Assembly: GCA_051251855.1 (NCBI GenBank)
Contig: JBPOGI010000001.1
Span: 1,184,001 to 1,248,000 of the forward strand
DNA: 64,000 nucleotides
Source of the DNA: Roseibacillus sp.
GTDB taxonomy: Bacteria > Verrucomicrobiota > Verrucomicrobiia > Verrucomicrobiales > Akkermansiaceae
Reading direction: 5' to 3'
In this document: positions 6,505-43,065 of the stretch, piece by piece
How positions within the stretch are numbered: position 1 is the stretch's first letter
How the letters are laid out: every line of letters starts with the position of its first letter
Program-made: the position numbers and the translations under genes
Notes under the pieces: generated by a model
The model's database searches: none
What the model was told of the DNA's origin: nothing
What the model saw: only the letters and a program-made list of their open reading frames with translations

Positions 6505-6613
6505 GATGTGAGTTCAACCTGAACGGAGAAATTGTTGCTGCTTCGGCAGCGGCCTTTGCCCGCCAAGGCCCATAATCATCGCCCCCCTTTTTTGTTCACC
6601 CCCTTTATATGAA
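6505..6613 (+). promoter_or_regulatory. Conserved leader, copy 2
   Basis: GATGTGAGTTCAACCTGAAC; hairpin GTTGCTGC-TTCG-GCAGCGGC (6534-6553); overlapping GGCCTT/AAGGCC stem (6551-6570); TGTTCACCCCCTTTATATG at the start codon. Confidence 0.6.
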
Positions 6614-9600
6614 AGCAATCGTTATCGCGCGTTGCAGGAAACTCTTGTTTGCCTGTTACCTCTTCTTGCCTGTCGCCCAAGCACAGGAAGTCGTATGGAC
6701 CTCCGGCGTCACCGCCCAAGTCTACGACATTCAGGAATCGATGGACCGCGTCTATGACCTTGTTCCCAATCAAACTCCCAATGTGGATCAGGTACGGCCC
6801 GTCATCGACTTTAGCAACGGGTCTTTTGTCGATCCCACCATCGGGCAGGACTACACAGACTTCTTTCTGGTAGAAATTTCAGCCGAAGTCTTCGCCGCCA
6901 CTTCAGGAACCTACACCTTCGAGCTCGAAAGTGATGATGGTAGCATTCTCTACTTCAACGAAGAAGTCGTCTGCGACAACGACGGCGCCCACGGTCCCGA
7001 GACCGTCAGCGGCACCCGCTATCTCGAAGCCGGCTGGCACGAGTTCAATATCACCGCCTTCAACGACGTCGGCGACTTCAAACTCCAGTTGAGATGGATT
7101 CAGCCCGGACAATCCAACGCCAACATCATCCCTCAATCAGACCTACGCACCGACGACAACGTCGTCCGCGTGATCGCTCCGGGAAGAAAGTTTATCTTGA
7201 ACAATGGCGACCTTAGCCCTGGCACGGGACTCCCCGTATCTGACATTCACCCCGGATGGGAGCTGAGCACGATTCGCCCCGATAGCTTTGAACCCCAAGT
7301 AGGAGCGATGGCCCTCGCTAACGAGAACACCCTTTACCTCGGCACCTTCGAGCCCAACCAGCAGGACGATACCGGCTTCGATGCCAAGGCCAGAGTCTGG
7401 CGCGTCGATAACGTCAATGGCGACCCCTCGAACGTGACTTACACCCAAGTCGCCGGCCATGACCTGAACGGAACCGCGTTTCTCAACGAAGTGACCGGTT
7501 TGGAGTGGTTCAATGGCGAACTCTTTCTCGCCGAGCGCACCGGTATCTTTCGCATGATTGATGACAATGGCGACGGGCTGTTTGAAAACAAGGAACTCGT
7601 CGGCGACTTGTGGGATTGGGACAACTTTCACCAATTCCCCTTCTGCCTCAAGCATCGCTCCGAAGAAGATGGCGACTACCTCTACGGAGCCCTTTCGGTC
7701 GCCATTGGTTTGGGTGGCAATAGTGACTCCAATCGCGACGATTTCCGCGGCTCCGCCTTCCGTCTTAGAATCCCCGCTCGCGGACAGCGCAATGATGTTG
7801 AATATCTCGCGGGTGGCTTCCGCACCCCTAACGGTGTTGGCTTCGGGCCCGAAGGCGGACTTTTCATCACCGACAACCAGGGAGGTTGGAACCCTTCAAA
7901 CAGCCTCGTCCATGCCGTTCCCGGTCGCTTTTATGGTCACTTCAACCCCACCGACGTCTTCCCCCCTCCTGCGGACTACACTCCTGTGGTGGGACGCTTT
8001 GAGAACGAGCCCATCTCTCCTAAGACGGTTCACTTCCCTCAGAACGAAGTCTCTAACTCCCCTTCTGATATTCTAGAACTCCAGGAAGGCCCCTTCGCCG
8101 GACAACTCTTGGTGGGCGAACTCACCGCTGGAGGTATCCGCCGCGTTTTCCTCGAAAAAGTGGGAGGCGAATTCCAAGGAGCCCTCTTCCGTCACTCACA
8201 GGGATTCGAAGCCGGCGTCAACCGCCTCCGCCTCTCCAATGATGGTTCCATCTACGTCGGTTGCATGGGCTCTAATGGAGGATGGTCTTACCAAGACCTC
8301 GTCTACGGTCTCCAAAGAATGCAGCCCAAAGCTGACGCCCCGTCGGTCTTTGAAATCAAAACCGTCAAAGCCCTCCAGACCGGTATCGAAGTCGAGTTCA
8401 CCAACCCCGTTCCTACTGCCCTTCTCGACAACGTCGATAGCTACTTTGTCCAACAATGGCGCTACGTCGCCACTGAAAACTATGGCGGTCCCAAAGTCGA
8501 TCTCACTGAACTTCCCATCAGTGCCACCGCAATCTCCGCCGACCGCAAAACCGTTCAGCTCACTCTTCCTGGAATGCAAGCCGGCCACGTGATCTACCTC
8601 CGTACCGGCATTCGTGACGACGACGGCGACAATCTCTGGAGCGGCGAAGCATGGTATACCATGAACCAGATTCCTGACTCCACTCCCCCCATTGGCAACG
8701 GCGATTGGGTCGACCTCTTCAACGGAGAAAACCTCGATGGCTGGCAAGCCTTTAAGGGCGGTGCTCTTCCTGAGCGTTGGACAGTGCGCGATGGCGTGCT
8801 CACCCTGGACCCCGACCTTCCCGGCGAAGTCACCGACATCGTGACGACCCAAAGCTTCGGCGACTTCGAATTCGAGATGGAGTGGAAAGTGGAGCCCGAC
8901 CAAAACTCGGGAATTTTCATTCGTCTCAGCGAGCAATACAACCAAATTTGGGAAGGCGGCCCCGAGATGCAAATCGTCGACGACGAGCTCAACATCGACG
9001 GCCAAAACGACATCACCCGCGCCGGCGCCATCTACAACCTCTACCCTTTTCCTGCAGGTTCCTCCAACTCCTCTAACAGCTGGAACCAAGTCCGCATCAT
9101 CGCCGACGGAACCCAGACAACCTACTACCTCAATGGACAACTGGTTGCCTCCTTCGATGTCGAAAGCGAAGATTACTGGAACCGGGTGCAGGCCTCCAAC
9201 TTCAATTACATCCCCGACTTCGGTCGTCTCACCTCAGGACCGATCGGATTTCAGGATTACAATAACAAGGTGCAGTATCGAAATATTCGCATCCGCGATC
9301 TCAATGGCATTATCAACCCCGAACCTGAGCCCGAACCTGAGCCCGAACCTGAGCCCGAACCTGAGCCCGAACCTGAGCCCGAGCCTGAGCCCGAGCCCGA
9401 ACCGGAACCTGGCACACCCACTCTTACCGATGGCTTTGTGCGCTTGGAACTCGAAAACGGCAATCCCTCCAACGGTGCCGTGGTCAGCAACGAAGACCCC
9501 GGATACAGTAGCACTGGATTTATCGCAGGATGGGATGGCATTGGCCAAAACGAAGAACTCAGCATCGAGGTCAACATTCCAGAGGCTGGCTCTCACGAAT

Positions 9601-11654
9601 TCCTTCTTGGCTATGGCCGTGCCACTTGGTCGGCGGTGGGACAACTCATCGGAGACGGAGAAGTGCAACTCCTCATCGATGGAAACCTAGCCGCTACACT
9701 CGCGCTGCCCACCTCTAGCGAGTGGAGTGAGTGGCAAGTGACGACAGCCCTCTCGCTTCAACTGGATGCCGGGGTTCAGACTATCACTCTCAGAAACCCC
9801 TATTCTTCCGAAAGCACCAAAGGACAAGGAGTCGCCAACTTCGACTTTCTTGACCTCTCTTTCCAAGGCTCCCCCCCCGAACCGGAACCGGAACCGGAAC
9901 CGGAACCCGAGCCCGAACCAGGCACCCCCACTCTCGAAAACGGCTATGTGAGACTTGAGCTTGAAGAAGGCTCACCCAGCAATGGCGCACGCCTGAGCAA
10001 CGAGGACCCCGGTTACAGCGGCACAGGTTTCATCGCTGGCTGGGACGGTATCGGAAACAACGAGCAGACCCAGATTTCCGTCAACATTCCCGAATCTGGC
10101 GTCCACCAACTTGTTCTCTCCTACGGTCGCGCAACCTGGTCAGCGGTAGGCCAACTGATTGGTGAGGGTGAAGTCGAGCTGATAGTCGATGGCACCTATG
10201 CTCAAACTCTGGCCCTCCAAACATCGACCAACTGGGACGAGTGGCAACAGGTCGAGATATCGCTTAACTTGGAGGCAGGTTTCCGCTCCCTCACCCTGCG
10301 CAACCCTCATTCTTCAGAAGCCGACAAAGGAAGAGGAGTCGCTAACTTCGACTTCATTGACCTCACTTTCGGAGGAACAACTCCTCCAGAACCTGAGCCC
10401 GAACCCGAACCGGAACCAGAGCCAAGCGTTCTTCGTATCGAATTCGAAGATGGCACCCCAACCGATGGGGCTTTCGTCAGTTCCGATGACCCCGGCTATA
10501 GCGGCAGCGGCTTCATCGCCGGATGGGACGGTTATAATCGCAACGAAACAGTAACAGTCCCATTTTCCATCGTCACCTCGGGAGATTACGAAATCACTCT
10601 TCGCTATGGACGCGCCAATTATTCCGGAGTGGGACCACTCTCTGGCTTCGGACAAGTCGACATGGCCCTTGATGGGGTTTACCTCGACTCCGTTCTTCTC
10701 TCGACAAACGGTGATTGGAGCGTGTGGCAGGACTCACCCACAACCGCCGTTTACTTGGAGGCTGGCAACCACAGTATCACCTTGCGTAACCCCTTCTCGA
10801 GCGAAAGCGAAAAGGCCCTTGGAGTCGCCAACTTCGACTTTCTGGAACTCACATCTGTTGGCGGTCCCGTTACTCCTCCACCCGTTGGCAATGACATCCA
10901 GCGTCTTGAACTCGAGAACGGCACCCCTGCCAAGGGAGCCGAAGTCAGTAACGAAGGCCCTGGATTCAGCGGCACAGGCTATATCAGCAATTGGGATGGC
11001 ATCGACACCAACGAAGAAGTAGCCGTCCCATACGAAGCAGCCACCTCAGGGAACTATCAGTTCACCGTGCGCTACGCCCGTGGCCCGGACTCAGCAGTGG
11101 GCCCTCTCACTGGAACTGGTGAAGTCGAACTACAAATCGATGGTCGCTGGGTGCAAACATTCAAACTACAAACTCAGACGACTTGGGATGACTGGCAACT
11201 AACGGAGACTCTTACCGTCTACCTTGAAGCAGGTCTTCATAATTTGATTTTAAGAAATGCCTTCGGCAACGTAGCCGAAAAGCCTGAGGGAGTTGCCAAC
11301 TTTGACTACTTAGAAGTGGAGGCCCCTCGCGAAGAAATTGCGGCTTCTGCTATCGAGGGCGCTTTCGCGAACGCCTACCAAGATTTTTCATTGTCGTTCG
11401 ATGAACCAGATGAGGAAACCCCCTACTCATCCTCACTTTCGCGCGGCATTCTATCTGCTCGCATTCTCACCGAACCCGGAACCACCTATTACGTCGAATA
11501 CTCTCGTGATTGTAGTGTCTGGCAACGTGGACTCACATTCGTGGGAGAAGGCTCGATTCAATCATCAGAAATCGCGAACATACTTGTCGACTCGCCACAG
11601 GGGTTCATGCGCATCCGCTCGGTCCCGACTCCTTCTGATGAAGCTCCTCAATAA
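6609..11654 (+). CDS. Tandem paralog of 1667-6265 (1681 aa): PA14, beta-propeller, DUF1080, 4 CBM6/35-like modules, C-terminal domain
   Basis: First ~900 aa are colinear and highly similar to the upstream gene. Pro-Glu linkers and one extra CBM-like repeat. Confidence 0.85.
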   Translation: MKAIVIARCRKLLFACYLFLPVAQAQEVVWTSGVTAQVYDIQESMDRVYDLVPNQTPNVDQVRPVIDFSNGSFVDPTIGQDYTDFFLVEISAEVFAATSGTYTFELESDDGSILYFNEEVVCDNDGAHGPETVSGTRYLEAGWHEFNITAFNDVGDFKLQLRWIQPGQSNANIIPQSDLRTDDNVVRVIAPGRKFILNNGDLSPGTGLPVSDIHPGWELSTIRPDSFEPQVGAMALANENTLYLGTFEPNQQDDTGFDAKARVWRVDNVNGDPSNVTYTQVAGHDLNGTAFLNEVTGLEWFNGELFLAERTGIFRMIDDNGDGLFENKELVGDLWDWDNFHQFPFCLKHRSEEDGDYLYGALSVAIGLGGNSDSNRDDFRGSAFRLRIPARGQRNDVEYLAGGFRTPNGVGFGPEGGLFITDNQGGWNPSNSLVHAVPGRFYGHFNPTDVFPPPADYTPVVGRFENEPISPKTVHFPQNEVSNSPSDILELQEGPFAGQLLVGELTAGGIRRVFLEKVGGEFQGALFRHSQGFEAGVNRLRLSNDGSIYVGCMGSNGGWSYQDLVYGLQRMQPKADAPSVFEIKTVKALQTGIEVEFTNPVPTALLDNVDSYFVQQWRYVATENYGGPKVDLTELPISATAISADRKTVQLTLPGMQAGHVIYLRTGIRDDDGDNLWSGEAWYTMNQIPDSTPPIGNGDWVDLFNGENLDGWQAFKGGALPERWTVRDGVLTLDPDLPGEVTDIVTTQSFGDFEFEMEWKVEPDQNSGIFIRLSEQYNQIWEGGPEMQIVDDELNIDGQNDITRAGAIYNLYPFPAGSSNSSNSWNQVRIIADGTQTTYYLNGQLVASFDVESEDYWNRVQASNFNYIPDFGRLTSGPIGFQDYNNKVQYRNIRIRDLNGIINPEPEPEPEPEPEPEPEPEPEPEPEPEPEPEPGTPTLTDGFVRLELENGNPSNGAVVSNEDPGYSSTGFIAGWDGIGQNEELSIEVNIPEAGSHEFLLGYGRATWSAVGQLIGDGEVQLLIDGNLAATLALPTSSEWSEWQVTTALSLQLDAGVQTITLRNPYSSESTKGQGVANFDFLDLSFQGSPPEPEPEPEPEPEPEPGTPTLENGYVRLELEEGSPSNGARLSNEDPGYSGTGFIAGWDGIGNNEQTQISVNIPESGVHQLVLSYGRATWSAVGQLIGEGEVELIVDGTYAQTLALQTSTNWDEWQQVEISLNLEAGFRSLTLRNPHSSEADKGRGVANFDFIDLTFGGTTPPEPEPEPEPEPEPSVLRIEFEDGTPTDGAFVSSDDPGYSGSGFIAGWDGYNRNETVTVPFSIVTSGDYEITLRYGRANYSGVGPLSGFGQVDMALDGVYLDSVLLSTNGDWSVWQDSPTTAVYLEAGNHSITLRNPFSSESEKALGVANFDFLELTSVGGPVTPPPVGNDIQRLELENGTPAKGAEVSNEGPGFSGTGYISNWDGIDTNEEVAVPYEAATSGNYQFTVRYARGPDSAVGPLTGTGEVELQIDGRWVQTFKLQTQTTWDDWQLTETLTVYLEAGLHNLILRNAFGNVAEKPEGVANFDYLEVEAPREEIAASAIEGAFANAYQDFSLSFDEPDEETPYSSSLSRGILSARILTEPGTTYYVEYSRDCSVWQRGLTFVGEGSIQSSEIANILVDSPQGFMRIRSVPTPSDEAPQ
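9318..9410 (+). repeat. Pro-Glu linker with 5 perfect 12-bp units CCCGAACCTGAG (9318-9377)
   Basis: Read directly; encodes (PE)15P. Confidence 0.95.
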
Positions 11655-39054: not shown

Positions 39055-39749
39055 TTCTTCACCGCCGGATTCATGAGACTCCCCTTCGTTACCACCGCGT
39101 AAGCCTGATAGCTCTTGTGCTTCTTGAAGGCACTATTAGTCGTAATCCGCAGAAGCCCAAAACCACGCTGGTCAGTTTCGCTAGGAGTCACCGAAAGGCG
39201 GTAGATCTTGCCCTTCTCGATTGTTTCTAACTTAAATGGAAACTTTCCCTCATTCGTCCCACTCACCTTCAAAATTTCTAGCGGATATTCATCGCTAATG
39301 GTCAGTAGAAAAGCCTGCTCTTTAGGTTCAGTCCCTTCCTCCCACTTGAGAGTTTTGGGCTCGATCTTCAATAACTCCGGCATCGTCATTCTAACCGTCA
39401 GATCGTGTCGCGCGCCATTGACCATCAAAATTGAAATCTGCTTATCAACGGTGCCTCGAAAGTTCCCCACCTTGAACAGCCCACGGACCGTTCCCTCTTC
39501 TCCCTCTTCCCACTTGAGACGACCGCCATCGCTTATTTGAGCTTCTAAGCAAGAGCATGGAGCATCGTATCGCTTGATTTCAGCCGGTCCTGAACCTGAA
39601 CTTTTAAATTTAAAGTCAGCCGTCACCGTCTCTTGGTCAGGCTCGGCTAGAACTTCGATAATAGTCTTCTCGAACTTGAGCCCACCTGCGCACGCTATCG
39701 TAGCAAGCGAGTAATAGAGGCCTAATGCGAGTAGACAATTCCTTTTCAT
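39051..39749 (-). CDS. DUF1573 Ig-like exported protein
   Basis: FKF...G..P..I......C.C pattern (APCSCL); start MKRN overlaps the upstream stop (ATGA). Confidence 0.78.
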   Translation of the reverse strand: MKRNCLLALGLYYSLATIACAGGLKFEKTIIEVLAEPDQETVTADFKFKSSGSGPAEIKRYDAPCSCLEAQISDGGRLKWEEGEEGTVRGLFKVGNFRGTVDKQISILMVNGARHDLTVRMTMPELLKIEPKTLKWEEGTEPKEQAFLLTISDEYPLEILKVSGTNEGKFPFKLETIEKGKIYRLSVTPSETDQRGFGLLRITTNSAFKKHKSYQAYAVVTKGSLMNPAVKK

Positions 39750-40237
39750 TTCTGAGCTAAAGGTAGCAGCTCGATTCCAACAATCAACCTTCCACCTCTC
39801 CACTCAGGACCCGCAATATAAAGCCACTTCCCGTTCTTCATCGGTTGCGTGGTCTTCATCACTTTACGCTTTCCCTGCCAAAGCTCCAAATCCAACTTCA
39901 CACCATCGTTCTCAGCCTCACTGTTCGGCTCGAAACTTAAGAGAATTTCGTCCGACCCCTTCATCGGTGACGCCCAATTGGTATAGCTTCGCCAGATGGG
40001 CTTGGTATCCGTTCCCAGAAGCCCATAGCTGCTAAAGTTTAAATCTTTCAAGAGCTGCATTCGAACTGAATGCCCTTTCTCTGCAGGTTTAGCAGAGGGC
40101 ACAAGTTTCGCCAAATCACCGTGAGTTCCAAATAAGAGAACAGTTCGCAACCGAGCAACCGCCTCCTTACCTGGATCCTGAGCAGCTGAGCATCCTGCGA
40201 GCAACATCCAAACGAAGGCAATGACTGAAATTCTCAT
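39746..40237 (-). CDS. Putative lipoprotein
   Basis: Lipobox LLAGC; coupled to both neighbours. Confidence 0.7.
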   Translation of the reverse strand: MRISVIAFVWMLLAGCSAAQDPGKEAVARLRTVLLFGTHGDLAKLVPSAKPAEKGHSVRMQLLKDLNFSSYGLLGTDTKPIWRSYTNWASPMKGSDEILLSFEPNSEAENDGVKLDLELWQGKRKVMKTTQPMKNGKWLYIAGPEWRGGRLIVGIELLPLAQK

Positions 40238-40849
40238 CTAGTAAACTTGAGGTGAACCTTTGGTAGAAATCAGCTGCACATCAGACGGCAACTCCCGCAC
40301 GCTCTGGCCTCCCGCCATCAAATCGTATGAGTCAGGAATTGGTTGTAAGCCATCGAGCACAATCACACTCGTCCCCGCCGCATCCGCATTGACGATGGTT
40401 GAGGTCACGCCTCCTTCTGGAGTGTAAACAAGAGGCCGGCTTTGCTCCTTAGCCACCACAAGTTGATTCTCCACTGGAGCTTTTCCTACTCGCGTGCCAG
40501 CAAGAAAGGCAACCGCCATGGCGCCCACTGCCACCGGAGCCAGCCACCACTTCAAAGCATCACGCCAAGTGCCTGATGCTTTAGAGGGCGCAGCAACTCC
40601 CTCTTCACGATCGGCATCTCGAATAGCCTGCTCCAGCTTCGTCTGGAAAAAATCGCCATAAGGAACGTCACCTGTCTGACCAAACGCGCTTTGCAATTCG
40701 TTCCTCAGCTCCGAATGCCCCTCCTTCATCGCATGCAATTCAGGTTCGGCCTCCAAGATCAGAGCCAACTCCTCTTTCTCGCCAGTAGACAACACATCGT
40801 CATCCATCCAACGCACAATTAGTTCTTCTTTACGCTCCTGATTCATCAC
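40238..40849 (-). CDS. Putative transmembrane anti-sigma factor
   Basis: RseA/RskA-like N-terminus (ELIVRWMDD..LS..E), one TM, overlaps the ECF sigma stop. Confidence 0.75.
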   Translation of the reverse strand: MMNQERKEELIVRWMDDDVLSTGEKEELALILEAEPELHAMKEGHSELRNELQSAFGQTGDVPYGDFFQTKLEQAIRDADREEGVAAPSKASGTWRDALKWWLAPVAVGAMAVAFLAGTRVGKAPVENQLVVAKEQSRPLVYTPEGGVTSTIVNADAAGTSVIVLDGLQPIPDSYDLMAGGQSVRELPSDVQLISTKGSPQVY

Positions 40850-41489
40850 TTAGCAGTCCTTGTAGTTTCTTACGTGCATAAAATAAACGGCTCATCACCG
40901 TTCCCATCGAAATTTCCATCACATCCGCGATCTCTTTATAATCCATTCCCTGAACCTCGCGCAGCATCACCACCTCTTGATGCTCTGGCGAAAGCTTGCT
41001 CATCGCATCTTCGATACGGGTTCTCAGCTCATCATTGCGCATGGCATCATCCGGCCGAGCCTCTTGAGTCGGAGTCGTCAGCGCCCCCACCGCAATCTGG
41101 CTTTCCTTCATCAAAGTGTCGTCAAATTCGCCTGCGCTTTTTAATTTTCTCTTTCTCATCCAATCGTAAACCACGTTGTGGACGATTCGATACAACCAGG
41201 TCGAAAACTTGGCGCGCGCCTCGAACTTCGGAAGCGCCTTCCAAACCTTCAGAAACACCTCTTGAGACAAATCCCAAGCATCGGCGTCGTTTTTGACCAT
41301 ATTTTGAATCATTGCATATACTCGTCCGCGATGACGGGTCACGAGATCCTCGAAAGCCCGGGAGTCGCCTCCTTGGCTACGAGCCACAAGGTCCAGATCA
41401 ATCTGGGCATCGTCACCTCCTCCTCCGGCACTATCGCCAGAGTCCTTCGCCATCACCCCTTTCGACGCTGACCTAGTGAAAAAATTCAT
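40830..41489 (-). CDS. ECF sigma-70 factor (RpoE/SigW-like)
   Basis: GDSRAFEDLV, DLSQEVFLKVW, FSTWLYRI, YKEIA....GTVMSRLFYARKKL. Start could be 41453. Confidence 0.93.
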   Translation of the reverse strand: MNFFTRSASKGVMAKDSGDSAGGGGDDAQIDLDLVARSQGGDSRAFEDLVTRHRGRVYAMIQNMVKNDADAWDLSQEVFLKVWKALPKFEARAKFSTWLYRIVHNVVYDWMRKRKLKSAGEFDDTLMKESQIAVGALTTPTQEARPDDAMRNDELRTRIEDAMSKLSPEHQEVVMLREVQGMDYKEIADVMEISMGTVMSRLFYARKKLQGLLSDESGA

Positions 41490-41508
41490 CAAAATTTAAC
41501 GAAAACGT

Positions 41509-41537
41509 AGAATGCCTAAATACCACCAAAAAGGCAA
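41509..41537 (-). promoter_or_regulatory. Candidate sigma70-type promoter of the ECF operon (TTGCCT-17-CATTCT)
   Basis: Hexamers and spacing read on the minus strand ~20 nt before the ATG. Confidence 0.4.
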
Positions 41538-41584
41538 GGCAGGGCTCGCTTCAAAAAAAATCGAAAAAAAAGTGCCTCTTCTTT

Positions 41585-41611
41585 GAACGGATCGCTTCCT
41601 GACGGGTCTAC
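41585..41611 (+). promoter_or_regulatory. Candidate ECF (sigmaE-like) promoter GAACGG-16-TCTAC
   Basis: Matches the GAAC..-N16-TCT geometry of sigmaE/AlgU promoters; two A-tracts upstream (41553-41571). Confidence 0.55.
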
Positions 41612-41617
41612 TCCCTA

Positions 41618-41736
41618 TGTAGCAAGCAACTTTGCTTGTTGCAGTCTTCATATAAAGGGTGAACACCGTAGGGGATCTGAACAACCCTCTACAAACAAAG
41701 CTGGGGAAGTCTTTCGGGACTTCCCCAGTTTGTTTT
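41618..41736 (+). ncRNA. Candidate small regulatory RNA (~120 nt, three hairpins)
   Basis: 11-bp 5' stem (41618-41643), unpaired region 41644-41667, 7-bp stem (41668-41692), terminator. G-U pairs form only on the + strand. Confidence 0.65.
41700..41736 (+). terminator. Strong intrinsic terminator (possibly bidirectional, also serving rodA)
   Basis: CTGGGGAAGTCT-TTCG-GGACTTCCCCAG followed by TTTGTTTT. Confidence 0.88.
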
Positions 41737-41763
41737 CCCCCAAAAGTCTTACGCTAAGCCTCG

Positions 41764-42960
41764 CTATCGAGCTCGTTCCTGCCGTCCATCCACCACCCCA
41801 TGCATCTCGTTGCGATGGACCCAGATACTTTGGACCAATCCCAACAAAAACATGCAGATCAGGACAAATGTTCCCGAATAGCTAATCAAAGGCAGCGGAA
41901 TTCCCGTAATCGGCATCAGTAGCACACACATCCCCACACTCTCAAAGATGTGCGCAAAAAACATCGCCACCACCCCCGAAGCCACCACCTGCCCTAAAAA
42001 ATCGCGACTATAGAAAGCCACGAAGAGCACCTGGATCAGCAACAACGCAAAAGAGGTCAGCATCAGCAGAGACCCGCGAAACCCCTGTTCCTCCGCAATC
42101 ACTGCAAAAATGTAGTCGTTGTGAGCCGTGGTCCACGGAATGTATTTTTTATCGTGAATCGAACCCCGTTCAGCTTTCGCCTTGTAGCCCATCCCCTTCC
42201 ATCCCGCTTGGCCCACCGCGAGGGAAACGTAGTACGATGCGTAGGTTTCATCACTCTTCTCCACCTTGCCATCACGCAAAAACTCCAAATACTGGTCAAT
42301 CCGCCCACTGGCACGATCGGAGACCTCCGGCAGAATCAAATAGTAAATAATCGGCAACATTCCGACCCCGGTGAGAATGATCGCGCTCAGGTAGCGGAAC
42401 GGAATTCCACCCACCAGCAGCGTCACAAATGCCACTGGCAGAAAAACAATCGCCGATCCCATGTCTCCGTTCTTCACAACGAGAACGAAAGGAACTCCAC
42501 AGACCACCGCCACAAAGGCCAGCTTCACCAGAGGTTCCCCAAAAATGCGATGAAAGCGCGGCAATTGGTCAAAAGCGGTTCCCAGTAGAATAATTCCTGC
42601 CGCCAGAACGAACGTCGTGGGCTGAAAACTAAAAGGAATCCCGGGAATCTGAAGCTGGTGAACCGCCGGCGCAGGAGCCTCCCAAATCCCAAACATAAGC
42701 ATCACCTGCAAAGTAACACCGCCCAAATACATCGGAATCGCCAGCCATTTCACCCAACGATAGTCAATAAGCGCCGTGCAAAAGTAGACCACGCTCCCCA
42801 AAAGAATAAACATCTTCTGATTGCGGGAAAAGTACTCACCTCCTTGAGGCAGGTGACGAGCGGCGCTTTCAATCGAAAAGACCCCAAACACCAAGAGCCC
42901 AAACATCACGATCACGAGGACCCAGTTCAGACCGAGGATTTTTCGAAGAAGAGGAGTCAC
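41764..42960 (-). CDS. rodA: SEDS family peptidoglycan polymerase (RodA/FtsW)
   Basis: DMGSA, AHNDYIFAVIAEEQGF.G, MPITGIPLPLISYSG. Confidence 0.88.
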   Translation of the reverse strand: MTPLLRKILGLNWVLVIVMFGLLVFGVFSIESAARHLPQGGEYFSRNQKMFILLGSVVYFCTALIDYRWVKWLAIPMYLGGVTLQVMLMFGIWEAPAPAVHQLQIPGIPFSFQPTTFVLAAGIILLGTAFDQLPRFHRIFGEPLVKLAFVAVVCGVPFVLVVKNGDMGSAIVFLPVAFVTLLVGGIPFRYLSAIILTGVGMLPIIYYLILPEVSDRASGRIDQYLEFLRDGKVEKSDETYASYYVSLAVGQAGWKGMGYKAKAERGSIHDKKYIPWTTAHNDYIFAVIAEEQGFRGSLLMLTSFALLLIQVLFVAFYSRDFLGQVVASGVVAMFFAHIFESVGMCVLLMPITGIPLPLISYSGTFVLICMFLLGLVQSIWVHRNEMHGVVDGRQERAR

Positions 42961-43065
42961 AGGATGAGTCCCAAAAAGTGCCCCCTACCTAACCTCGACA
43001 CAAGCCCCAGCCGTGGCTGCAACCGAATATTTAAAAGGAGGACCGAATTCAGTCGTCCACCATCC

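Follow-up and report, generated by a model that had tools for sequence, protein, structure and literature searches.

The window, by which we mean the whole 64,000-nucleotide stretch of Roseibacillus DNA analysed here, very likely carries a real and uncatalogued small RNA (sRNA) gene that is one of a set of siblings in its source genome (G000, 95% complete). Its product is fairly likely to be a trans-acting RNA of ~120 nt that would be transcribed under envelope stress by a distal ECF sigma factor (sigma2, G000:C1:1686792-1687394), pair with mRNAs at their starts and repress surface-polysaccharide genes. Visible in the sequence are a conserved promoter, covarying stems, a terminator and five siblings; the regulation is predicted. 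The features of the region are given below, where sigma1 denotes the neighbouring ECF sigma factor and sibling B the copy in the window.

41582..41588, + strand: -35 element TTTGAAC of an ECF-type promoter, matching the family consensus from 100 promoters
41606..41610, + strand: -10 element GTCTA, 17 nt past GAAC, the spacing being constant in 7/7 orthologues
41617..41737, + strand: predicted sRNA of ~120 nt, sibling B, its ends placed from the promoter and the terminator
41618..41643, + strand: 5' hairpin SL1, 11 bp, from the fold and covariation
41641..41665, + strand: 25-nt predicted pairing core, mostly single-stranded, identical in 5/7 copies
41668..41692, + strand: hairpin SL2, 7 bp, with a loop word invariant in 7/7 copies and a covarying stem
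41701..41737, + strand: intrinsic terminator, a 12-bp UUCG hairpin with a U-rich tail, probably bidirectional here
40830..41489, - strand: sigma1, divergent ECF sigma factor, probably not cognate
40238..40846, - strand: putative anti-sigma factor for sigma1 (NF052375 matched weakly, at 29.9 bits, below the cut-off)
41764..42960, - strand: rodA/FtsW-family gene, convergent and not required by the RNA

Both the letters and their folding were re-examined, and every element that the earlier note had described in this region was found at its coordinates. The GAACGG (41585-41590), 16-nt spacer and TCTAC (41607-41611) of that description are the same promoter as GAAC-N17-GTCTA, with GTCTA beginning at 41606. 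The 24 nt between SL1 and SL2 (41644-41667), which had been taken as unpaired, are indeed mostly single-stranded, although a weak 5-bp hairpin is possible in some folds. The pairing core holds an anti-start CAU together with the seed of the family, AAGGGUGAACA (41655-41665), and the SL2 loop repeats the word UGAACA (41678-41683) as a candidate second seed. The UUCG hairpin occupies 41701-41728 and is followed by TTTGTTTTC. Folding energies were -55 kcal/mol (z -6.0) for the plus strand and -49.8 kcal/mol (z -3.7) for the minus strand, and none of 200 shuffles matched either value. Since a terminator scan called the last hairpin on the minus strand only, this hairpin may also end the convergent rodA transcript. 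On the other side of the unit, the sigma1 operon has a third gene (39746-40237, minus strand) for a 163-aa protein with a signal-peptide-like start, which had no match in Pfam or NCBIfam; in relatives, similar proteins also come after the anti-sigma factor.

The Rfam scan proposed in the earlier note was carried out with Rfam 15 over positions 40500-43000 of the window, and no family reached its gathering score. The best match of the window copy was sX11 (RF02230; 26.3 bits, E 0.029), with which it has in common a GGGG..CUGA.CAA.CCC hairpin and a terminator; however, the score lies far below the gathering score of 70, the core is unaligned, and other copies of the family did not match sX11 at E up to 1. 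Among sequencing runs recorded as RNA, none was found to contain the 41585-41736 stretch. An 85-letter piece identical to 41652-41736 occurs in a 322-letter contig with unlike flanks, from a run that is RNA only by guess; this contig shows neither the strand, the ends nor the level of an RNA and was excluded from the evidence.

The promoter and three-hairpin unit is present in six of the eight congeners searched, and the carriers of the exact core are Roseibacillus (the cultured Roseibacillus persicicus included) or unclassified Verrucomicrobiota. Five of the six congener copies are divergent from the sigma1 gene, and the sixth adjoins rodA with sigma1 on another contig. The homologue search that the earlier note had suggested recovered the unit in congeners, and rodA adjoins it in only 2/7 copies. 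Because of this count, and because in one congener (G005) rodA abuts the sigma1 gene while the RNA is absent, the unit can be regarded as independent of rodA. Across the seven orthologous copies the distance from GAAC to GTCTA stays at 17 nt with variable spacer letters, and hardly any variation is seen in the core or in the loop word UGAACA. All three stems covary, with both sides changed in 9/27 pairs, and the covariation score of the alignment was equalled by 0/500 shuffles; 93.9% of the cells are paired, compared to 37-53% when the alignment is slid. The anticipated conservation of promoter and stems is therefore present, and conservation and covariation together give good support to a free-standing sRNA of ~120 nt on the plus strand behind an ECF-type promoter.

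Beyond these orthologues, weak matches of a first model proved to be true, divergent homologues. A first scan of metagenomes with the Roseibacillus core gave no locus, viral contigs gave none and plasmids had no match, and a metagenome scan with the core of the divergent homologues gave 32 loci. Among distinct loci that bear the core, 64 in all, 62 have the promoter and two are truncated by contig starts. A second model matched 68 of the 150 genomes of the family, with one to six matches in each; inspection of 22 lower-scoring matches showed the promoter in 20, a variant of it in one and a bare terminator in one (G082). Model matches in the genus g3 (G082, G229 and G259) were terminator-only on an inspection that left out G266. 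Outside the family no true copy was found, the model matching 1/115 genomes (G276, a false, terminator-only match) and the exact pattern 0/281. A loose pattern search was uninformative and was discarded, as 151/151 genomes matched it.

Most loci of the family are of a kind we call type A and lie upstream of a SurA_N/rotamase, PpiD-like gene, and G000 has such a copy; 45 ORFs adjoining type-A loci are one such gene, on the same strand. In an alignment of 42 type-A copies, 17/20 pairs have changed on both sides and none of 500 shuffles reaches the score. The seed is invariant in 42/42 of these copies, which were chosen by that seed, and divergent siblings carry seed variants. Where copies stand in tandem, each has its own promoter and terminator. 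When 16 loci of the family were compared with Rfam, only two tRNAs were matched, and for five loci scanned at E up to 1 the RNAs themselves had no match. No conserved reading frame follows the seed: 18/69 copies have no start codon, and the others encode 3-31 residues of differing lengths. The 5' stem takes up the anti-start letters in type A, and the window copy leaves them exposed. G000 has five siblings behind one type of promoter, the window copy included. The four others (loci L154, L352, L351 and L353), which have seed variants, lie in G000 as follows.

G000:C6:206191-206327, - strand: sibling RNA gene with the same promoter
C8 promoters 391584 and 386959, - strand: two sibling RNA genes (C8 pair) with the same promoter
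C1 promoter 1011368, + strand: sibling RNA gene of the C1 type with the same promoter

The C8-type pair stands in tandem in G004 and is present in G001 and G006, and the C1 type is found in G007.

From 100 promoters of the family we built a position weight matrix (TTTGAACr-N16-GTCT), with which nine sites in G000 scored 20.8-27.9 and the next site 17.0. The window site has the top score (27.9) and is within the training set, to which two of the nine sites belonged. Eight of the nine are intergenic, and five of these precede three-hairpin non-coding RNAs, namely the window copy B, type A, the C8 pair and C1. The other three precede genes for an NlpC/P60 protein and an OmpA-domain protein, which would also belong to the predicted regulon, and a 68-codon frame; the NlpC/P60 promoter recurs in three congeners and the OmpA-domain promoter in four. 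The 68-codon frame (L354:571-777, G000:C9:183270-183476) has no Pfam match, and G001 has a frame with a similar start and promoter.

The earlier note had assigned transcription of the RNA to the adjacent ECF sigma factor. This part of its reading is probably wrong, because the promoter tracks sigma2, which is encoded elsewhere in the genome, and we consider it likely, on the basis of co-occurrence, protein likeness and gene context, that the RpoE/AlgU-like sigma2 drives the window RNA. Among 37 genomes of the family, 24 hold both sigmas and 16 of those have a promoter-bearing copy of the RNA, so that all 16 promoter-bearing genomes hold sigma2; in the eight others with both sigmas no RNA was detected. 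Seven genomes that are 95-98% complete (G005, G008, G012, G020, G022, G023 and G027) have sigma1 and no sigma2 match at E 1e-45, and none of them has a promoter-bearing copy. Two of these, G008 and G027, still have a type-A RNA, behind a decayed promoter with no GAAC-N17-GTC, and in G005, whose sigma1 is 85% identical, there is neither a motif match nor the RNA. These counts overstate the association because the genomes are kin, and absence of a sigma here means that it was not found with the query used.

The best NCBIfam match of sigma2 is RpoE (TIGR02939, score 126.5 against a cut-off of 236), and in alignments with solved chains of sigma-E and sigma-H (AlgU) the protein retains GTVRSR. Its gene is followed by one for a small putative anti-sigma factor and then by a trypsin-PDZ gene (L435:1398-3395; G000:C1:1685397-1687394, minus strand). 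Sigma1 has GTVMSR and FEARAKF where sigma-E and AlgU have GTVRSR and FRGDSAF, motifs which we presume to have a role in promoter reading. Sigma2 itself has the promoter motif upstream in G017, G019, G024 and G035, and no such self-promoter motif was found upstream of sigma2 in G000; with the matrix, scores of at least 14 occur at 3/39 sigma2 loci and 1/29 sigma1 loci and scores of at least 10 at 8/39 and 1/29, respectively, a modest signal. In addition, words complementary to the seed occur in the sigma2 leader of 5/16 carriers and 0/16 non-carriers (mean pairing of -12.7 and -9.4 kcal/mol), which is only a hint that the RNA might feed back on sigma2 mRNA. A paper on ECF classification (PMC7826278) and one on the specificity code (PMC7776599) give no Verrucomicrobia motif in their main text; an assignment of the two sigmas to ECF groups, with predicted promoters, may be contained in their supplements.

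Transcription of the same sRNA by sigma1 is unlikely, although several facts speak for it: 6/7 type-B copies are divergent from sigma1, the 16 promoter-bearing genomes all hold sigma1 too, six genomes of the family without a sigma1 orthologue have no motif match, and sigma1 also resembles sigma-E. Against it stand the seven genomes in which sigma1 occurs with a decayed promoter or no promoter-bearing copy, the altered motifs of sigma1 and the fact that copies of the family other than sibling B are unlinked to its gene.

Hfq (PF17209), CsrA (PF02599) and ProQ were not found in the 95% complete G000, which holds two RRM_1 proteins that are candidate partners of the RNA. Leaders in G000 are G-poor and poor in Shine-Dalgarno (SD) motifs, strong anti-SD pairing being seen in 3.7% of them versus 6.4% of control windows. 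Congeners keep the anti-SD tail, and a congener's tail was used in place of the 16S 3' end, which was not found in the G000 assembly. As a separate observation on this region, one rRNA copy of G106 (L398) reads GATCATCTCC at the anti-SD region of the 16S 3' end, whereas four relatives read GATCACCTCC.

The 25-nt core is complementary at 23/25 positions to one other site in the genome, the start region of a gene for an NAD-dependent sugar epimerase. The match is antisense and covers positions -14 to +11, and the epimerase is the first of two genes, the second encoding a glycosyltransferase. According to duplex energy this site ranks first among 3,460 start regions (-36.7 kcal/mol; the best sites of 10 shuffled cores reached -27.2 to -32.0), and with accessibility it ranks first among 3,459 (-24.1, with a mean of -5.35 and a standard deviation of 2.68; two shuffles gave -15.5 and -17.4). 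Gene starts were taken from a simple in-house caller. The site is kept in four of six orthologues (G000, G001, G003 and G004) with 22-23/25 matches and duplexes of -33 to -40 kcal/mol, is lost in G006 (-16.6 kcal/mol) despite an identical sRNA core and is absent in G007 (-17.5 kcal/mol); for G002 and G008 the gene is truncated at its 5' end. In the four genomes that pair, 11 of the last 13 positions of the leader are identical, compared to 31/141 fourfold-degenerate sites of the gene. The four pairing leaders also conserve a small hairpin, TTCAAG ... CTTGA, after a GTTCA (L037:5693-5712 region), and this GTTCA could meet the loop word of the RNA.

A second predicted target, like the epimerase a gene of surface-polysaccharide synthesis, is a wcaJ-like priming transferase, the only gene among 3,459 whose positions -50 to -1 hold two GTTC[AC] words including GTTCAC. 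Two or three GTTC words occur in the wcaJ-like leaders of 5/7 congeners, G002 having a single word and G007 lacking them; the words are 11 bp apart in G000, and the congener spacings are 6, 9, 11 and 13 nt. Neither GTTCAC nor TTCACCC occurs as a word in the wcaJ-like leaders of 12 genomes from outside the genus. For comparison, at least two GTTC words are present in 52/3,459 leaders and three in five, and GTTCACC is only the 536th among leader 7-mers. Upstream in the same leader (L155, G000:C1:64267), TACTTCC-N-TTTTATAAA is conserved in five congeners and is probably its promoter. The site ranked second for the window RNA lies in the window itself:

6593..6616, + strand: second-ranked predicted target site, -21.7 kcal/mol, rank 2/3,459

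The gene at this site (6609-11654, plus strand) encodes a secreted, carbohydrate-binding protein of 1681 aa with PA14, 3-keto-disaccharide hydrolase and CBM35/CBM6 domains, for which no close orthologue was found in five congeners.

Several results limit how far these predictions reach. Sibling A ranks the epimerase and wcaJ leaders 3 and 17, and siblings C1 and D rank them 322-605. In G007 there is no other 24-nt match at up to three mismatches and there are no wcaJ words, and for type-A copies in the five genomes searched no 23-nt match at up to three mismatches was found except sibling copies. Strong sites for the 16-nt seed alone were no more frequent than for 30 shuffles, and its sites have no enrichment of signal-peptide or PEP-CTERM genes (15 of the top 50 versus 15.0 expected). 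Pyrimidine-rich leaders and ATG-AAR starts also favour chance pairing with a purine-rich core that bears CAU. A further candidate signal, the seed complement before ATG, gave 13 plausible starts in 15 RNA-bearing genomes (~72 Mb) and one in five RNA-free genomes (~18 Mb) and was set aside as too weak.

With these limits, it is probable that the window RNA is a pairing repressor of the start regions of polysaccharide-synthesis genes in a Roseibacillus subclade. SL1 of the window copy appears to have been rebuilt so that GUCUUCAU is exposed, which would lengthen the seed to a 25-nt strand that spans the epimerase mRNA from -14 to +11, and in the wcaJ-like leader the tandem GUUCAC words are possible partners for both UGAACA words. 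Occlusion of the start region would presumably block loading of the 30S subunit, at leaders without an SD motif and in a host in which neither Hfq nor ProQ was found.

The repeated words may also be read in another way, in which UGAACA would bind an RNA-binding protein, such as an RRM protein, and the number of copies of the RNA would set the dose of titration. The word is indeed repeated, once in a loop and once in a single strand, there are several copies per genome and two RRM proteins, and the target search with the seed alone did no better than chance. However, a sponge shares the word of the mRNAs that it frees, and the conserved words of the leaders are instead its complement; moreover, the 25-nt match spans a start codon, and for a sponge of the Csr/Rsm type CsrA was not found and the loops have UGAACA rather than GGA. 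Such titration is thus rather doubtful, slightly more so than transcription by sigma1. A DNA-level reading, in which the GTTCAC words of the wcaJ-like and epimerase leaders, together with the reversed words of the unit, would serve a transcription factor as operators, is improbable: the two wcaJ words of G000, 11 bp from each other, resemble a direct repeat for a response regulator and, we assume, PHO-type boxes, but the spacing varies among congeners, the epimerase match reaches into the coding sequence, and the covarying stems and the terminator would be left unexplained.

It is even less probable that the RNA is a cis-acting leader or attenuator of a downstream gene (the ppiD-like gene in type A), with the window copy as a stranded duplicate. 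The position of type-A loci before the ppiD-like gene agrees with this, whereas the gene downstream of the window copy is convergent with it, each tandem copy has a promoter and a terminator of its own, and many genomes have ppiD-like genes without the RNA. Finally, there is very little chance that the unit is nothing more than a minus-strand rodA terminator or 3' UTR, a gene for a short peptide or an anti-SD decoy, in spite of the terminator call on the minus strand, an ATG-AAG-ACT-GCA frame there and an SD-like seed, since 5/7 copies do not adjoin rodA, the minus-strand frame beginning within the core runs from 5 to 51 codons across the seven copies and therefore encodes no conserved peptide, the frames past the seed have no common length (so that peptides were rejected on both strands), and the decoy was rejected on a pairing of only -8.7 kcal/mol with the congener 16S tail.

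Read as a pairing repressor, the window RNA shares several features with the class of sigma-E/ECF-dependent trans-acting sRNAs: an ECF promoter with fixed spacing, a conserved single-stranded seed, its own intrinsic terminator and no conserved reading frame. For the Hfq-dependent class (MicA/RybB/MicV type) the host Hfq was not found in G000, and for the Csr/Rsm-type sponges neither CsrA nor GGA loops were found there. Among the literature titles and abstract openings surveyed, none described an sRNA for these Verrucomicrobia. The closest known systems, likened to the unit by their descriptions, include FoxI/FoxJ and FopS. FoxI and FoxJ of Fusobacterium nucleatum are sigma-E-dependent, stand-alone sRNAs in a host without Hfq (PMC9546586, PMC11005410), with promoters that likewise have AAC at -35 and a GTC-type -10 element (GTCWAA in PMC9546586), and they repress by pairing at translation-start regions (PMC9546586), as is predicted for the window RNA. 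They differ in phylum; here there are also homologous siblings that share a seed (five in G000 and up to six model matches in other genomes), leaders that are SD-poor and predicted targets in polysaccharide synthesis instead of porins.

Several seed-sharing sRNAs under one envelope-stress sigma are known from MicV/VrrA of Vibrio cholerae (PMC6694218) and MicA/RybB (PMC9546586), but these need Hfq and repress outer-membrane proteins, whereas Hfq was not found here, there is no Rfam match, and the seed, placed between two hairpins, is lengthened to 25 nt in the window copy. FopS, with the RRM protein RbpB of Bacteroides thetaiotaomicron, also comprises multicopy, seed-sharing paralogous sRNAs that pair at translation initiation regions of glycan-related targets in a host with RRM-1 proteins (PMC11697453). 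In that system, however, the promoter is of the primary sigma type and glycan catabolism is repressed (PMC11697453), compared to an ECF promoter and predicted biosynthetic targets here.

In the part of the literature consulted, evidence that the sigma-E response has an sRNA arm came from Proteobacteria until FoxI was described (PMC9546586). If our reading is true, the present RNA family would extend this arm to another phylum, with predicted targets in surface-polysaccharide synthesis that are unusual for the class. From the family come a consensus for the promoter, a candidate for the cognate sigma, a small predicted regulon and two leaders as predicted targets. As its hosts are SD-poor and have no Hfq or ProQ that could be found, it also bears on how start sites may be blocked without the usual chaperones and without the usual ribosome-binding motif. 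On a more speculative reading, the sigma would drive more sibling sRNAs than proteins (five of eight intergenic promoters), the seed would read pyrimidine-rich, SD-free starts without Hfq, and SL1 would expose or hide the anti-start strand. In this sense we tentatively suggest that free-living Akkermansiaceae may have a mostly non-coding response to envelope stress, made up of sibling sRNAs with a shared seed, refolding of SL1, feedback on the sigma mRNA and, in Roseibacillus, a sibling that would silence polysaccharide synthesis.
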